From Promethearchaeia archaeon (GTDB lineage: Archaea > Asgardarchaeota > Lokiarchaeia > Sigyniarchaeales > SOKP01), in the NCBI GenBank assembly GCA_029856105.1, contig JAHQWH010000193.1, forward strand, positions 50,449 through 114,448: DNA of 64,000 bases, in the 5' to 3' direction. This document shows positions 12,515 through 41,525 of this stretch, in pieces. The notes beneath the pieces are model-generated. The model searched no databases. It worked only from the letters and a program-made list of their open reading frames with translations, and had not been told where the DNA came from. Both the position numbers and the translations under genes were made by a program. The stretch's first letter is position 1; the number at the start of each line of letters is the position of its first letter.

Positions 12515-13312
12515 TTATTTTTTGGTGTTTTTAAAAGATTTTCGCAATTTTTTAACAATTTCGTTGACGCTCGTATCTTGTTCTGTCAATCTTAAGAAAA
12601 CGTCTTCTAAACTCGCACCTAACTTGTCGGCTTGCTGTCGAAGTTCGTCCATCGTTCCAATTCCAACCAATTTTCCCTTACTCATTATTGCTATTCGGTT
12701 ACATAAATCTTCTGCTATTTCCATGATATGGGTAGAAAAAAGAACGGAACCTCCTTTCTCAATATGTATATCCAATATTTCTTTAACAACTCTTACGGAC
12801 TTCGCGTCAAGTCCTGCCAAAGGCTCGTCTAAAATTAGTAAATCTGGGTCGTGAAGAATTGCCGAAATAATTTGAATTTTCTGCTTATTCCCGTGGGATA
12901 AAGTTGCTACTAATTGTTCGTAATAATCCAAGGCTCCCAAACTTTCCAGATACTCTTTCGCTCGCTCTGTGGTTTCCTCTGCGTCTAATCTACGAATAGA
13001 AGCTATAAAATTAAACAAATCTTTAGGCGTGAGGGATTTGAATATGAGGGGCTCTTCTGAGACATAGCCTACTCGACTCTTAATTTGGACCTCATCTGTT
13101 TCTGGGTTTAAGCCCATTATAGTTATATTTCCTTCTTTGGGCTCTAATAACCCTAACAACATTTTTAAAGTAGTTGTCTTACCCGCTCCGTTCGGCCCTA
13201 AGAGCCCGAAAACTTCACCCTTTTTTACGTCAAAGGATATTCCATTTACTGCTTTAACATCCCCAAAAAACTTTTTCAATTCGTTAACAGAAATCATAAC
13301 ATTATCGTTCAT
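12515..13312 (-). CDS. ABC transporter ATP-binding protein
   Basis: GPNGAGKTT, LSHGNKQK signature, LILDEP and STH. Confidence 0.95.
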   Translation of the reverse strand: MNDNVMISVNELKKFFGDVKAVNGISFDVKKGEVFGLLGPNGAGKTTTLKMLLGLLEPKEGNITIMGLNPETDEVQIKSRVGYVSEEPLIFKSLTPKDLFNFIASIRRLDAEETTERAKEYLESLGALDYYEQLVATLSHGNKQKIQIISAILHDPDLLILDEPLAGLDAKSVRVVKEILDIHIEKGGSVLFSTHIMEIAEDLCNRIAIMSKGKLVGIGTMDELRQQADKLGASLEDVFLRLTEQDTSVNEIVKKLRKSFKNTKK

Positions 13313-17051: not shown

Positions 17052-17996
17052 TTATTTTTCTTTTTGCTTAACAATTATAACGATCGATACGACAATGATA
17101 ACAAGTCCTATTAAATGAAAGATTGTAAATAGTTCTCCTAAAAATAACGTAGCAAATATCGCAGTAATAATTGGCGTTGGCGAAAAAAGGATTGTTGCCT
17201 TCGAAACATCTAAATATGAGAGCGTTTTGTACCAGCAATATAATCCCGCCCCATAAACGGTTCCCATTGAGATGTAATAGAATTGGTTGATTGGTACAAA
17301 TAATAGGCTAATATTCTCGAAAGGAAAGAATAGAAAATAAGTAGAAAATAAAATAATACCACTCAAAATATTTCTAATAAAAACCATCTGAGTCGGAGTA
17401 GCTTCATTTCGAACAAAAACCGGCTTAGTAATTGAATGTCCAAACATCCATAAACAAGTAATAAATAACATAATCAACACGCCACTCAAGATATCTAAAC
17501 TAAAAGTTAAGAGATTAAATGATCCTTGCGAAATAGCAAGGATTAACCCAAAAAATAAAATCGTTGAAAAAATTATTTGTACTTTAGTTATCCGCTCTTT
17601 TAAAATTAGAAAACCAAAAATCAAACTAAAAAAGACTGTTGTTTTTTGAGTAAGAGACCCATTAATTGCTCCTGCTAATTCATATCCTATAAAAAATAGT
17701 AGTTGGTTAAAACCAAAGATTATTCCAATAAATAGAAAGAGCCAAATATTTTTTCTCCAGTTTTTAATCATGGAATTGGTATGATTGGTACTTGCATTAT
17801 TATTCTTAGCTAGATTCACTTTTTTCTCTATAATAATTAATGGTAAGAAAAGCGCTGCTTCTACTAAACAAGTCATTACGGCGAAAATGTGAGCATCAAG
17901 CGCAACTGGGCGGCTGTTAGCAATTATTGGTTGAAAACCTACAAAAATATTCCCAATAACCCCGAAAATTAAACCTTTCTTTAAGTTGGTGTTCAA
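17052..17996 (-). CDS. DMT/EamA-family transporter
   Basis: About 10 TM helices; FSLIFGFLILKERI and FATLFLGE motifs. Confidence 0.88.
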   Translation of the reverse strand: MNTNLKKGLIFGVIGNIFVGFQPIIANSRPVALDAHIFAVMTCLVEAALFLPLIIIEKKVNLAKNNNASTNHTNSMIKNWRKNIWLFLFIGIIFGFNQLLFFIGYELAGAINGSLTQKTTVFFSLIFGFLILKERITKVQIIFSTILFFGLILAISQGSFNLLTFSLDILSGVLIMLFITCLWMFGHSITKPVFVRNEATPTQMVFIRNILSGIILFSTYFLFFPFENISLLFVPINQFYYISMGTVYGAGLYCWYKTLSYLDVSKATILFSPTPIITAIFATLFLGELFTIFHLIGLVIIVVSIVIIVKQKEK

Positions 17997-33031: not shown

Positions 33032-33427
33032 TTACAGCGCTACTATAGCACTTATTTCTATTAACATACTAGCAAGAGGTAAATTTGATACTTCCACTGT
33101 TACTCTCGCGGGATAAGATTCAGAAACTCCGTTGTCATTAAAAAATTTTTTATAAACGCTGTTCATTTCGTTAAATTCTTTAATATTTTTTAAAAATACG
33201 GTTGTATTGACAATGTTCGAAATTTTACATCCAGCAGCTTCTACGATTTTTTTAATATTGGTTAGTGCAACTAAAGTCTGTTCTTTAATATCATTTGCAG
33301 GTTGAGCCGATCCTTGGCCAGAAACAAATAGTAAATTACTTGCTTTTATGCCCGGGCTATAAGGTCCCGCAACGGGAGTTCCAGGATTAATAATTTCAAT
33401 ACCTGACATAATTAATTTTAAGCTCAA
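33032..33427 (-). CDS. ridA: RidA/YjgF-family enamine deaminase
   Basis: GPYSPG, LFVSGQ, MNSVY, PARVTVEVSNLP and IEISAI. Start position uncertain. Confidence 0.88.
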   Translation of the reverse strand: MSLKLIMSGIEIINPGTPVAGPYSPGIKASNLLFVSGQGSAQPANDIKEQTLVALTNIKKIVEAAGCKISNIVNTTVFLKNIKEFNEMNSVYKKFFNDNGVSESYPARVTVEVSNLPLASMLIEISAIVAL

Positions 33428-37576: not shown

Positions 37577-37990
37577 TCACATTATATTTGAGAGAATGGA
37601 TCCCATATTAACCATAATAAAAACGATTGGAAGGATTATTATCGAAACTACGGTTAACGAACGTTTAAGGCCAACTTGATGTATGACATTAATTACGTTT
37701 AAGTCAATAAAAGTACAAAATATTATTATTGGGATGATTACTTCGGGGGCTCCCTTGAACTCCCCTGCGAATCCTAACAAAAATAAAGGAGAACTAATAA
37801 AAAAAATTACTCCAAATTGAATTAGAAAACTTACCGCCACCCATTTCATTCCTGTTCTTTTTTTAGCTTTAGTTATTGCTAACCCGAACTTTAATAATAA
37901 GATATCTCCACCCGCAAAAGCAGCCATAAGGATTAGAAGCATAATATCCCCTTCTGGAGGATCTCCCATTTGTAATAAATTTAATAACAT
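37577..37990 (-). CDS. Hypothetical membrane protein
   Basis: Four TM helices. ATG at 37990 is preferred over the track start at 38068. Confidence 0.7.
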   Translation of the reverse strand: MLLNLLQMGDPPEGDIMLLILMAAFAGGDILLLKFGLAITKAKKRTGMKWVAVSFLIQFGVIFFISSPLFLLGFAGEFKGAPEVIIPIIIFCTFIDLNVINVIHQVGLKRSLTVVSIIILPIVFIMVNMGSILSNIM

Positions 37991-38204
37991 CTCTATTTCA
38001 CTAACCGTAGAAGTTCTATTTAAATTTGATTTAATCAAACTTTTTTTATTCAATTGCTTAAAAAACACATAAAAGATTTTTGATTTAAAGTTAATTTTTT
38101 TAATCAGTTATTTTAAATTAGAATAAAATATTTAGATTCATAATAACAATAATTACAAATTATTGGAGGAAACTAACAAAAAGGAACAAAAGGAATGATA
38201 TGCA

Positions 38205-40169
38205 ATGGTAGAAACTAAAATTACAAATGATGAACCAAGAATCTTCGTGGCAGTATGCCAATGAGGTATTAATATTGCCGAAATAATCGATACAAAAGCT
38301 CTATCAGAATATTCAAAAACGCTTCCAAATGTAGTTGAAGCTTTAGATTACATTTCAATGTGCACACAAGGCGGAGCCGAATTCATTAAAGAAAAAATGA
38401 TCGAGAGCAACGCTAATAGGTTAGTTATGGCATCTTGCACCCCAATAACTCACGAACCTGTTTTTAAAAGCGTACTAGAATCTATGGGTTTGGACCCTTC
38501 TTACTTGGAATTCGTGAACATACGAGAACACTCGAGTTTTGTCCATAGACAAGATAAAATAGGGGCACAAAGAACCGCTGAGGATCTTATTCGGTCTGGT
38601 GTTGCTAGGGCTAGTGTTTTAGAAAAAATTCTAATCAAAGAGGTAGATATCACTAAAAAGGCCTTAATTATTGGTGGTGGCGTGGCAGGACTAACAGCAG
38701 GAATAGATTTGGCCGAAGAAGGTTTTGAAGTCCATTTGGTTGAGAAAAATCCGACAACTGGAGGAAAAATGGCTATGTTAGATCGAACATTTCCCACTGA
38801 CGATTGTAGTATATGAATTCTTGGCCCTGTTATGCTCGAAGCGGCAAGAACTCCAGGGTTAATTGTATATACTTATAGTGACGTGGAAGATGTTTCTGGA
38901 TTTGTTGGAAACTTTAATGTTAAAATCCGCAAAAGGGCAAGGTACGTTAATAACGACTGCAATGGTTGCGGTGCTTGCTTTGATGTGTGTCCCGCTTACG
39001 GATACGATGAATTTAACGAAGGAATGAACCCGAGAAAAGCAATTTACGTTTCCTTTGCTCAAGCAGTACCCTCGATGGCTCAAATTGATATGACGAGATG
39101 CATTAAATGTGAATTGTGTAAAGGTGTCTGTGAAGTTAAAGCAATTGATTTTGATCAAGAAGATGAAATTGTAGACGTTAAAGTTGGCTCAATAATAGTA
39201 GCTACAGGATGGGACGAGTACGAACCAGAAACGGGTTATTTAGGATACGATGTTTATCCAAATGTAATAACCCAAATGAAGTTAGAAAGGATTCTTGCAC
39301 CTAACGGACCAACTCTTGGGCATCTAGTTCGCCCTTCTGACGGAAAAAAACCTGAAAAAATACTATTTATTCAATGTGTAGGGTCGAGAGATTTAAACAT
39401 GAATACTTATTGCAGTGGCGGAGTATGTTGTATGGTTTCAATTAAAAATTCTAAACTTATAAAACAACATTATCCTGAAATAGAAATCTCTGTTGCCTAC
39501 ATGGATATTCGAGCCGCTGGAAAAGATTACGAAGAGTATTACACCGCATCTCGAAAAGAAGGTATTAGATATATTAGAACTAATGTCTCAAAAATTCAAG
39601 AAGACCTTGAAACTCAAAATCTTAAAATAATTATCCAAAACACACTTAGCAGTACAAGATTAAAAGAACTTGAGTACGATATGGTGGTTCTATCGTGCGC
39701 TATGGTACCCGCAAAGGGAGTAGAAAAAATTGGAAGAATCTTAAAGCTTGAAACGAGCCAAGATGGATTTTTCAAGGAATTCCATTCTCGATTAAATCCA
39801 ATTGACACCAAAATTCCGGGTATCGTACTTGCAGGAGCTTCTCAAAGCCCCAAATCTGTAGCTGAATCAATAGCTCAAGGAAGGGCAGCAGCATCTTCTT
39901 TAGCACGATTGATGTGGAAGGATAAGTATAGGATTTTATTAATTCGAGCTACTGTAGACAAAGATAGATGTGCGAAGTGTGGGCTGTGTGAATTAAATTG
40001 TCCTTACGATGCAATTAAGACTTTAGCTGATGGAGCAGAAGTAAACGAGATATTGTGCCGTGGATGCGGTTCGTGCTTAGCCAATTGTCCTTCTGAGGCG
40101 ATTACGCTAAGATACTACCGTGAACCTCAATATGAAAAACAAATCGATGCTATTTTAGAAGAGATATAG
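38205..40169 (+). CDS. hdrA: Heterodisulfide reductase subunit A, selenoprotein (Sec20 and Sec204), 654 aa
   Basis: One frame from ATG 38205 through TGA 38262-38264 (EPRIFVAVCQUGINIA, cf. HdrA VCHCG) and TGA 38814-38816 (DRTFPTDDCSIUILGP) to TAG. Contains GGGVAG, QCVGSRD, YCSGGVCC and ferredoxin motifs. It joins track ORFs 38358-38816 and 38832-40169. Confidence 0.95.
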
Positions 40170-40182
40170 AGAGGTGTAAAAA

Positions 40183-40668
40183 GTGGCGACAATAGATAAA
40201 GACCAAATAAAGATCTTAGCATTTATGTGCTGGAAATGAGGTTATGGTGCTGGAGATATGGCGGGTACGATACGCGCTCAATACCCTTCTACGATTAGAC
40301 CTATAAGAATCAACTGTACTGGACGCGTAACGCCTTCACTTATGATGCGCGCGATTGGAAAGGGTGCCGATGGAGTAATTGTTGCTGGATGATACGAAGG
40401 AGAATGCGATTATGAAACCGGTAATTTGGTAGCAGCAAAAAACGTGAAGTATACGAGAGAAATTTTAAAAACCACGGGTGTTTCCCCTGATAGAATCCAA
40501 ATGTTCCATTGTAGCGCAGCTGAAGGTCAACGATTTCAAGAAGAAGTCACCAGAATCTCAGAAATAATCGAAAATTTAGGCAGCAATCCAATTAAAGAAT
40601 CTCTGCGTTCCGAAAAGAACAAAAAAGATTCAAAAAAAGAACAAAAAAAAATTAAACCGAAGGAATGA
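40183..40668 (+). CDS. mvhD: F420-non-reducing hydrogenase delta subunit MvhD/VhuD, selenoprotein (Sec19 and Sec70), 161 aa
   Basis: GTG at 40183 follows SD GAGGTG. Translation KILAFMCWKUGYGAGDMAG..QYP..INCTGRV..GADGVIVAGUYEGECDYETGN has TGA at 40237-40239 and 40390-40392, both at Cys-equivalent positions. Confidence 0.95.
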
Positions 40669-40722
40669 CTCTTGCGAGAAAATATTAGTCGCAAGACGAC
40701 GAACCATTAGCTATGGTTTCGG
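40657..40722 (+). promoter_or_regulatory. Eukaryote-like SECIS element
   Basis: AUGAC (40665-40669), 8-bp stem UCUUGCGA/UCGCAAGA, loop GAAAAUAUUAG and 3' CGAC giving tandem GA/AG pairs. Basal CCGA/UCGG pairing with a side hairpin AACCAU/AUGGUU. Confidence 0.85.
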
Positions 40723-40904
40723 AAATTATTATTTCTATAATAATTTTTATTATTTATTCTAAATTAACGTAATTTGAAGTTTAAAACTATTAAACTTCTA
40801 CTTAGTAAGATAAAGTATAAAAACTCATCTTTCTAGATAAACTATAATTTCAATTTTGTTTGAAATTAAAAAAATAAATGTTAAAAACAAATAAGTGAAA
40901 AAAT

Positions 40905-41525
40905 ATGGGAGAAACTTCTAAAGTAGGAATCTCAGCATCTAAAGTTGTAGCTCTTATTGGTGCGTTAGTCGTTATTCAAGTATGTATAGGATATTTTGCA
41001 ACATTAGATGCATTGAATATATTATATGGCATAATAGGACTAATATTTGCGGCTGTAATCTTCATATCATTAGAAATCGTGGATTTAAAGAAAGTGAAAA
41101 TACCTTATTTATGGTGGGTATTGTTAATCATCGGGATTCTCTTAATATTATTTGAATTTGCTGTTGGACCCTCATATCTTGGAGGTATTTTAGTTTTAAT
41201 AGCAGCATTACTAGAATTTTTAAGTCAGAAGAAAACTTATGCGGAATCCAAAATTGTTGCTTTAATTGGAGCATGTTATCTAATATATGAATCCGTAATG
41301 CCACTTCTTTCTGTTTCACCTGCACCTACAAGTATAGCCCTTTCTATTGTTGGATTCGTTTTTGCAATAATATTAATTTTAACATTGCAAGATAAAATAG
41401 ATGTAAAAATACCTTATGCATGGTGGACAATTCTCATAATTGGCTTTGTAGTATTTACATGGGTGACGACAGTTAGCGGAACGGTCATAATGGTAGCCTT
41501 TATCCTTATCCTGATGGCTTTTTAA
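40905..41525 (+). CDS. Hypothetical membrane protein with internal duplication
   Basis: Two repeats: SKVVALIGA..VKIPYLWWVLLIIG and SKIVALIGA..VKIPYAWWTILIIG. Confidence 0.8.
   Translation: MGETSKVGISASKVVALIGALVVIQVCIGYFATLDALNILYGIIGLIFAAVIFISLEIVDLKKVKIPYLWWVLLIIGILLILFEFAVGPSYLGGILVLIAALLEFLSQKKTYAESKIVALIGACYLIYESVMPLLSVSPAPTSIALSIVGFVFAIILILTLQDKIDVKIPYAWWTILIIGFVVFTWVTTVSGTVIMVAFILILMAF

Follow-up and report, generated by a model that had tools for sequence, protein, structure and literature searches.

We analyzed a stretch of 64,000 nucleotides (nt), hereafter the window, from contig JAHQWH010000193.1 (positions 50,449 to 114,448, forward strand) of the genome of a Promethearchaeia archaeon (GCA_029856105.1). 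The window contains two adjacent genes, hdrA and mvhD (also known as vhuD), which are interrupted by four in-frame TGA codons, and a selenocysteine insertion sequence (SECIS) of the archaeal type known as lokiSECIS at the end of mvhD. Both HdrA and MvhD are selenoproteins, and their four in-frame UGAs are real selenocysteine (Sec) codons. The two genes most likely form one mRNA in which the single lokiSECIS serves all four UGAs. The features of the locus are listed in Table 1.

Table 1. The hdrA-mvhD locus and its lokiSECIS (positions in the window; U in protein motifs is Sec).
Feature	Position	Strand	Description
Conserved upstream block	38067-38101	+	TATA-like TTTAAA at 38084-38089; kept in 15 orthologous upstream regions
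hdrA	38205-40169	+	654 codons with TGA read as U; TAG stop; flavo-iron-sulfur protein of the HdrA family
Sec codon U20 of HdrA (VCQUG)	38262-38264	+	Aligns to Cys in solved HdrA chains
Sec codon U204 of HdrA (DDCSIU)	38814-38816	+	Canonical HdrA Sec site; aligns to X in 9sfi_A
Spacer between hdrA and mvhD	40170-40182	+	13 nt; Shine-Dalgarno-like GAGGTG
mvhD/vhuD (PF02662)	40183-40668	+	161 codons (40183-40665); GTG start; TGA stop at 40666-40668
Sec codon U19 of MvhD (CWKUG)	40237-40239	+	Aligns to X of 9sfi_K
Sec codon U70 of MvhD (GUYEGEC)	40390-40392	+	Aligns to X of 9sfi_K
lokiSECIS	40657-40722	+	66 nt; begins within the last mvhD codons
Helix I	40657-40661 (CCGAA) with 40718-40722 (UUCGG)	+	GGA follows the 5' strand
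AUGA core	40665-40668	+	Invariant in 36 aligned elements
Helix II	40669-40677 (CUCUUGCGA) with 40689-40697 (UCGCAAGAC)	+	8 Watson-Crick pairs plus basal C.C
Apical loop GAAAAUAUUAG	40678-40688	+	11 nt; AAA and terminal G invariant in the alignment
GA of core	40698-40699	+	Followed by CGA
Helix III, 3' mini-hairpin	40703-40707 with 40713-40717	+	ACCAU-UAGCU-AUGGU
AT-rich tract with T runs	40723-40760	+	Directly after the SECIS; possible transcript end or terminator

With TGA read as Sec, HdrA is similar to the solved chain 5odc_A (E = 3e-197) and has an FAD domain and 4Fe-4S ferredoxin domains, and the NCBIfam models for HdrA also match. At the position of U20, each of the five solved HdrA chains that we aligned has Cys. 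MvhD matches PF02662 (E = 2e-42), and its two Sec positions, which correspond to the two X residues of 9sfi_K, are about 50 residues apart, as is typical of VhuD. The standard prokaryotic translation (table 11) splits the two genes into open reading frames (ORFs) of 152, 445, 44, and 80 amino acids. A first-pass annotation of this sequence had placed the TGAs (at 38262, 38814, 40237, and 40390) on conserved Cys positions, had described hdrA as ending in TAG 13 nt before mvhD, and had expected ORF callers to fragment both genes. Its coordinates and motifs are all correct, the sequence bears out the stop codon and the spacing, table 11 does yield four fragments, and the Cys/Sec equivalence holds at all four codons when the proteins are aligned to solved homologs.

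For comparative analysis, we searched 60 related genomes in six frames for orthologs and kept the 30 best mvhD loci of the same genus (77–98% amino acid identity); codon positions in hdrA and mvhD were compared in 20 same-genus loci that were fetched at full length. Each of the 30 mvhD orthologs has two or three in-frame TGAs. Among the full-length loci, codons 19 and 70 of mvhD and the U204 codon of hdrA are TGA in 20 of 20 cases, and the U20 codon is TGA in all 19 loci that cover the site. Five of the 20 loci have a third TGA in hdrA, at Cys53. The frames around the TGAs remain open in the orthologs, with 80–95% amino acid identity, and the MVET start of HdrA is kept. Because all four TGAs are maintained across 20 loci, sequencing errors and pseudogenes are excluded.

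The arrangement of the two genes is conserved as well. In 30 of 30 orthologs, the spacer is 13–15 nt long and contains a purine-rich GAGG-like motif (mostly GAGGTG). The stop codons follow a pattern: hdrA ends in TAG (20 orthologs) or TAA (10) but never in TGA, whereas mvhD ends in TAA (16) or TGA (14). In the window, the TGA that terminates mvhD is the UGA of the SECIS's AUGA core, and the same is true of 11 of the 30 orthologs. The lack of TGA stops in hdrA would be expected of a distant SECIS that recodes every UGA within hdrA but spares one that lies inside the element itself.

The lokiSECIS is found at the same place, after mvhD, in 30 of 30 orthologous loci. Across 36 aligned elements, helix II is 93% paired and has compensatory changes at 9 of 9 pairs, and none of 500 shuffled alignments matched the observed covariation. 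Helices I and III are moderately well supported: they are conserved within the orthologs, and comparison of paralogous elements from different gene families reveals compensatory changes in both, with 66–68% pairing (in a model-fitted alignment). The element has the lokiSECIS features described by Mariotti et al. 2016 (PMC4989117), namely the AUGA, a stem of nine positions, an 11-nt loop, the GA, and a position at the end of the gene. Also as described there, the first five positions of the loop are A-rich, and its last base is a G that is preceded by an A.

We searched for other SECIS elements with two covariance models, one for lokiSECIS (R1) and one for the selD-type element described below (R2). 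(A first, loose pattern scan for SECIS-like hairpins gave 146 matches versus 82 in the reversed genome, and we used it only as a lead.) With filters off, R1 has a single significant match in the window, after mvhD (102 bits, E = 3e-26), and the next best match scores just 19 bits. When R1 was run on 20 of the orthologous loci, including about 700 nt upstream of hdrA, each locus had one match of 84–100 bits, which lies after mvhD, and no other part of the locus, hdrA and its upstream region included, gave a match above 15 bits. R2 found nothing at the locus except for a weak cross-match to the lokiSECIS after mvhD. The first-pass annotation had reported that the only SECIS-like hairpin lies after mvhD and had named a separate SECIS inside or upstream of hdrA as the finding that would contradict a single shared element; the models recover one strong element in 64 kb, and neither of them finds a second one in or upstream of hdrA, here or in the 20 orthologous loci. 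A crude pattern search of 37900-40800, which lacked a positive control, found no element of the euryarchaeal GAA_A type. When the window and the region 37900-41000 were scanned with Rfam, neither the gathering threshold nor E <= 10 gave any match, not even to the lokiSECIS itself.

Other candidates were considered and rejected. The 19-bit match to R1 at 17497-17565, which is 20 kb away, has no apical loop, and a weak model match on the minus strand at 33107-33189 lies inside a TGA-free ORF of 131 amino acids and lacks the AUGA. We consider both of these to be noise. Hairpins of the bacterial type, right after each UGA, were rejected because their stability is inconsistent and they are not conserved.

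The genome itself provides a contrast between Sec-type and Cys-only loci. All four of its Sec-type hdrA-mvhD loci (on contigs C194, C11, C132, and C175) have the element after mvhD, with two, three, or four TGAs in hdrA. (The hdrA on C175 is truncated, and a fragment of hdrA on C57 may belong with it.) The eight hdrA/mvhD regions that encode only Cys (30 kb in total), which serve as negative controls, contain nothing above 16 bits. All of the strong lokiSECIS matches in the genome follow TGA-containing ORFs.

Other lineages of the class differ in where the element is found and serve as positive controls for the models. In one of them (L130; G060:C3:39800-44400, minus strand), a Cys-only mvhD is followed by a hdrA with U20 and U204, and a SECIS of 48 bits lies directly after hdrA, so the element tracks the last Sec-containing gene and not mvhD as such. 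A lone Sec-containing hdrA (L134) is followed by a weak SECIS match. Finally, in a related family of the same class (L135; G056:C26:46500-50700), Sec-containing hdrA and mvhD are 133 nt apart, and each gene is followed by a three-helix SECIS (minus strand, 1889-1793 and 1359-1259; 29 and 45 bits). This two-SECIS state looks like the ancestor postulated by Mariotti et al., and the shared arrangement may have evolved from it. Because the models find hdrA-proximal elements in other lineages, their failure to find one in the window is meaningful.

The genome (3.66 Mb, 32% GC, 92% complete) also encodes the machinery for Sec, whose absence the first-pass annotation had listed as a potential refutation. 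SepSecS (C16:25323-26480; E = 4e-115) and two tandem selD genes, each with one TGA, are above the cutoffs for their families. A candidate for the elongation factor EFsec lies about 5 kb from SepSecS, and its best family is selB (231 bits versus 142 for EF-Tu). There is also a candidate for PSTK (E = 1e-40). A search with PF01248 for relatives of SBP2 in this 92% complete genome identified two genes only, which is the number expected for the ribosomal proteins L7Ae and L30e. Because there are just two genes from the L7Ae family, we conclude that no SBP2-like protein is present among them.

The gene for tRNA-Sec was located by a permissive scan next to SepSecS (C16:26700-26862, minus strand; L021:6700-6862). 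It has the anticodon loop CUUCAAA and an encoded CCA, and it is interrupted by a 34-nt insertion in the D arm and one of 31 nt in the T loop. Unless the D-arm insertion is taken out, the 9-bp acceptor stem does not form, and removing both insertions in silico gives a 91-nt product that ARAGORN calls as tRNA-SeC. On the intact genome, ARAGORN and the Rfam model for tRNA-Sec report only tRNA-Gly and tRNA-Leu. Of 36 members of the genus, 32 have kept the gene, and its nearest relatives have the same architecture throughout, with 99% identity. For the tRNA-Sec of Lokiarchaeota, only an intron in the T arm, which corresponds to the T-loop insertion here, is reported in PMC4989117 and PMC5330540. 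This intron, the type of SECIS, and the size and GC content of the genome together point to an archaeon of the Lokiarchaeia type.

Given this evidence, we infer that hdrA and mvhD are co-transcribed and that the lokiSECIS functions across the boundary between the two cistrons. With just 13 nt between the genes and a ribosome-binding site in the spacer, both would be transcribed as one mRNA. The AUGA...GA core of the element would adopt a kink-turn-like structure, with the nine-position stem and the A-rich 11-nt loop above it and the lower helix closing it. The element would then recruit the Sec-specific elongation factor and Sec-tRNA(Sec) via a binding protein. Ribosomes would read all four UGAs, which are 275 to 2403 nt upstream of the element, as Sec, and the UGA stop of mvhD, which is inside the element, would still terminate translation. 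The earlier proposal of one SECIS for two cistrons over 0.3–2.4 kb is thus supported by the lack of a second element, the pattern of stop codons, the controls, and the Sec machinery; all of the computational checks agree with it, and we consider it to be probably correct.

Several observations weigh against this explanation. The helix II pair beside the core is C.C here and is unpaired in about half of the orthologs; in the other half or so, this ninth pair is Watson-Crick. The element does not match the SECIS models in Rfam, and we found no SBP2-like protein in the genome. The candidates for EFsec and PSTK score below the equivalog cutoffs in NCBIfam, although the best family is the right one in each case. 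A lokiarchaeal SECIS was non-functional in Methanococcus maripaludis (Peiter et al. 2025, PMC11881835). Also, co-transcription is suggested by the spacing of the genes, Sec insertion directed by the lokiSECIS is a computational prediction, and searches with models could overlook an unfamiliar kind of SECIS within hdrA.

This last point leads to an alternative explanation, in which the downstream element serves mvhD only and hdrA has its own unrecognized signal, either a local redefinition element or a third type of SECIS in or upstream of hdrA. Model searches can only detect what resembles the models, a separate SECIS does follow hdrA in a related lineage (L135), and the 60 nt after UGA-204 and after UGA-19 of mvhD fold more stably than 93–96% of windows from the operon. 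However, the sequence downstream of the other two UGAs (HdrA 20 and MvhD 70) is unstable. Neither of the 15-codon stretches that follow UGA-20 and UGA-204 of hdrA has reduced synonymous variation (z = -0.98 and +1.64, respectively), and we found no consensus structure in the 165 nt upstream of hdrA across 15 species. Neither SECIS model finds a further element in any of the 21 loci, and the crude search found no GAA_A type. Furthermore, the 13-nt spacer between hdrA and mvhD is too short to hold a SECIS or a promoter, and the absence of TGA from 30 of 30 hdrA stops fits with a SECIS that acts on hdrA. Overall, a separate signal for hdrA seems improbable.

Another possibility is that the two genes are transcribed separately, with an internal promoter near the 3' end of hdrA, so that the SECIS acts in trans or on mvhD only and full-length HdrA arises from rare read-through. 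Codons 636-650 of hdrA (approximately 40110-40155), which are just upstream of the start of mvhD, have the lowest synonymous variation in the gene (z = -2.5). This may reflect signals for translational coupling or an internal promoter, as either a promoter or a ribosome-binding region could account for the constraint. However, the spacing of 13–15 nt and the GAGG-like motif after the hdrA stop, in every ortholog, are typical of coupled translation, and we know of no SECIS that acts in trans. Moreover, because the Sec positions of hdrA are conserved and five species have a third one, these UGAs must be decoded efficiently. We consider separate transcription to be very unlikely. Lastly, that the TGAs do not encode Sec at all but are real stops (in pseudogenes or split genes), assembly errors, or sites of readthrough as another amino acid would account for the splitting of both genes by ORF callers, but it is barely credible, as all four are on conserved Cys/Sec columns and remain TGA in 20 loci, the surrounding frames are open and conserved, the element occurs only beside TGA-containing genes, the Sec machinery is complete, and the genetic code is not reassigned because TGA is also used as a normal stop.

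With one shared lokiSECIS as the preferred explanation, its structure can be compared to that of the other SECIS in this genome. The selD-type SECIS (C222:11705-11790 and 13229-13310; L142), which has 30 relatives in our alignment (A7), consists of an AUGA, a 7-bp stem, AAAA with an apical mini-stem, a GA, a lower helix, and a 3' mini-hairpin. Within the genus, all three of its helices are 93–100% paired, with compensatory changes. Because the selD type also has a covarying lower helix and 3' mini-hairpin, the three-helix layout is common to both types of SECIS, that is, the type found with hdrA-mvhD, vhuU, and prxL as well as the selD type. In this layout, the 3' hairpin follows the core's GA, and the lower helix closes over it. 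More speculatively, both types might be a conserved three-helix junction, rather than a simple kink-turn hairpin, in which helix III docks an archaeal factor that replaces SBP2 and so aids action over 2.4 kb and across cistrons; we view this as a tentative idea that is rather unlikely to be correct. The third helix and the lower helix are not mentioned in the parts of the published lokiSECIS models (PMC4989117, PMC11227280) that we used.

Other features of the locus flank the genes. The block at the far upstream end (Table 1) is a candidate promoter for hdrA-mvhD, and the AT-rich tract after the SECIS is, judging from its composition, possibly where the transcript ends. Closer to hdrA, a GGAGG at 38165-38169 is invariant in 15 species; it is 36 nt before the ATG, which is too distant for a normal ribosome-binding site. 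The sequence AAGGnnTGATATGCA at 38190-38204, directly before the ATG, is also conserved in 15 species. The upstream neighbor (37577-38068) is on the opposite strand, and the next gene downstream begins at 40905. The neighboring genes encode HisRS, an OMP-decarboxylase-like protein, an M24 peptidase, a nucleoside phosphorylase-like protein, AOR, and proteins of unknown function. Because the neighbors are unrelated and the upstream one is on the other strand, hdrA-mvhD is a free-standing unit of two genes.

The lokiSECIS also occurs behind a family of small ORFs. These ORFs of about 65 amino acids have one N-terminal hydrophobic helix, the motif D-x-GGG-U-x-C, and a single in-frame TGA, and are followed by a lokiSECIS (in this genome, C48:29551-29824 [L092/L110], C122:1120-1411 [L086], and C190:1603-1802 [L091]; relatives are L108-L119). 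Of 151 genomes from the class, 55 have members (53 of the 126 genomes that belong to the same family), nearly always with one TGA, and 10 of the 11 loci that we fetched have a SECIS match of 46–65 bits directly downstream. These ORFs are not among the 11 families of archaeal selenoproteins in a 2026 review (PMC13188914), and they are candidates for a new family of small membrane selenoproteins. Separately, a 37-bit lokiSECIS-like match on the minus strand at C19:120088-120180 (L101), which was not part of the training of the model, has only small zinc-ribbon-like ORFs upstream, with no convincing Sec codon or selenoprotein ORF.

How does this locus compare to known systems? According to Mariotti et al. 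2016 (PMC4989117), every tandem of HdrA and VhuD that they describe has a single lokiSECIS, downstream of VhuD; a single polycistronic mRNA is most likely; and as many as six UGAs, spread over about 2 kb, may depend on one element. The same shared-SECIS arrangement is described across hundreds of Asgard genomes by Huang et al. 2024 (PMC11227280). Because the arrangement was published for Lokiarchaeota in 2016, the locus in the window is another well-supported example and not a discovery, and it adds no new principle. If the shared SECIS is real, it would be the only known instance of a single Sec signal that acts on several UGAs in two cistrons of the same prokaryotic mRNA, and it has also been used to argue that Asgard archaea bridge archaeal and eukaryotic Sec decoding. 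The set of 30 orthologs, the Cys-only paralogs as negative controls, and the two-SECIS lineage strengthen the published inference and could guide the design of reporters.

The closest match is to those lokiarchaeal HdrA-VhuD pairs (PMC4989117, PMC11227280). They share the gene order, a very short spacer, a multi-Sec HdrA that includes the site near 200, a VhuD with two Sec, and one element only, located behind the second gene, that has an AUGA, a stem of nine positions, an A-rich 11-nt loop that ends in AG, and a GA. The hdrA stop is always UAA or UAG, and a UGA stop can be the UGA of the AUGA; this overlap involves mvhD here and VhuU.1 in the paper. There is no essential difference, and the lower helix and the 3' mini-hairpin are documented here by covariation.

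The resemblance to eukaryotic SECIS elements (RF00031, which act with SBP2 and eEFSec) is partial. Both are 3' of the coding region and have an AUGA...GA non-Watson-Crick core and unpaired adenines in the loop; they would also share action over kilobases and a rule of minimal distance under which a UGA close to the element can serve as a stop. Unlike a eukaryotic SECIS, the lokiSECIS does not match RF00031, has a shorter upper stem and an extra 3' hairpin, overlaps the coding region, and would act on two cistrons within one prokaryotic mRNA, and no SBP2 homolog was found (in line with PMC4989117). The first-pass description of the element as eukaryote-like therefore applies to its A-rich loop and its AUGA/GA core but does not extend to the eukaryotic Rfam model or to an SBP2-like gene.

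The proteins themselves have counterparts in other archaea. Methanococcales and Methanopyrus share the selenoprotein families HdrA and VhuD, the synteny of hdrA and vhuD, and the Sec positions. Euryarchaeal SECIS elements have an asymmetric GAA_A internal loop, with a lower stem on one side and a short, GC-rich upper stem on the other, and occur once per selenoprotein gene, whereas our crude search found no GAA_A type at this locus; the euryarchaeal SECIS of VhuD also carries AUGA and GAC, according to PMC4989117. Unlike HdrA2 of Methanosarcina, which is a fusion of HdrA and MvhD (NF040770), the locus has two genes that contain Sec, with no hdrBC or mvhAG adjacent in the window. In the NF040770 profile, the N-terminal 643 positions are matched by HdrA and the C-terminal 131 by MvhD, and because both match parts of this fused profile, hdrA-mvhD is a split form of one functional module.

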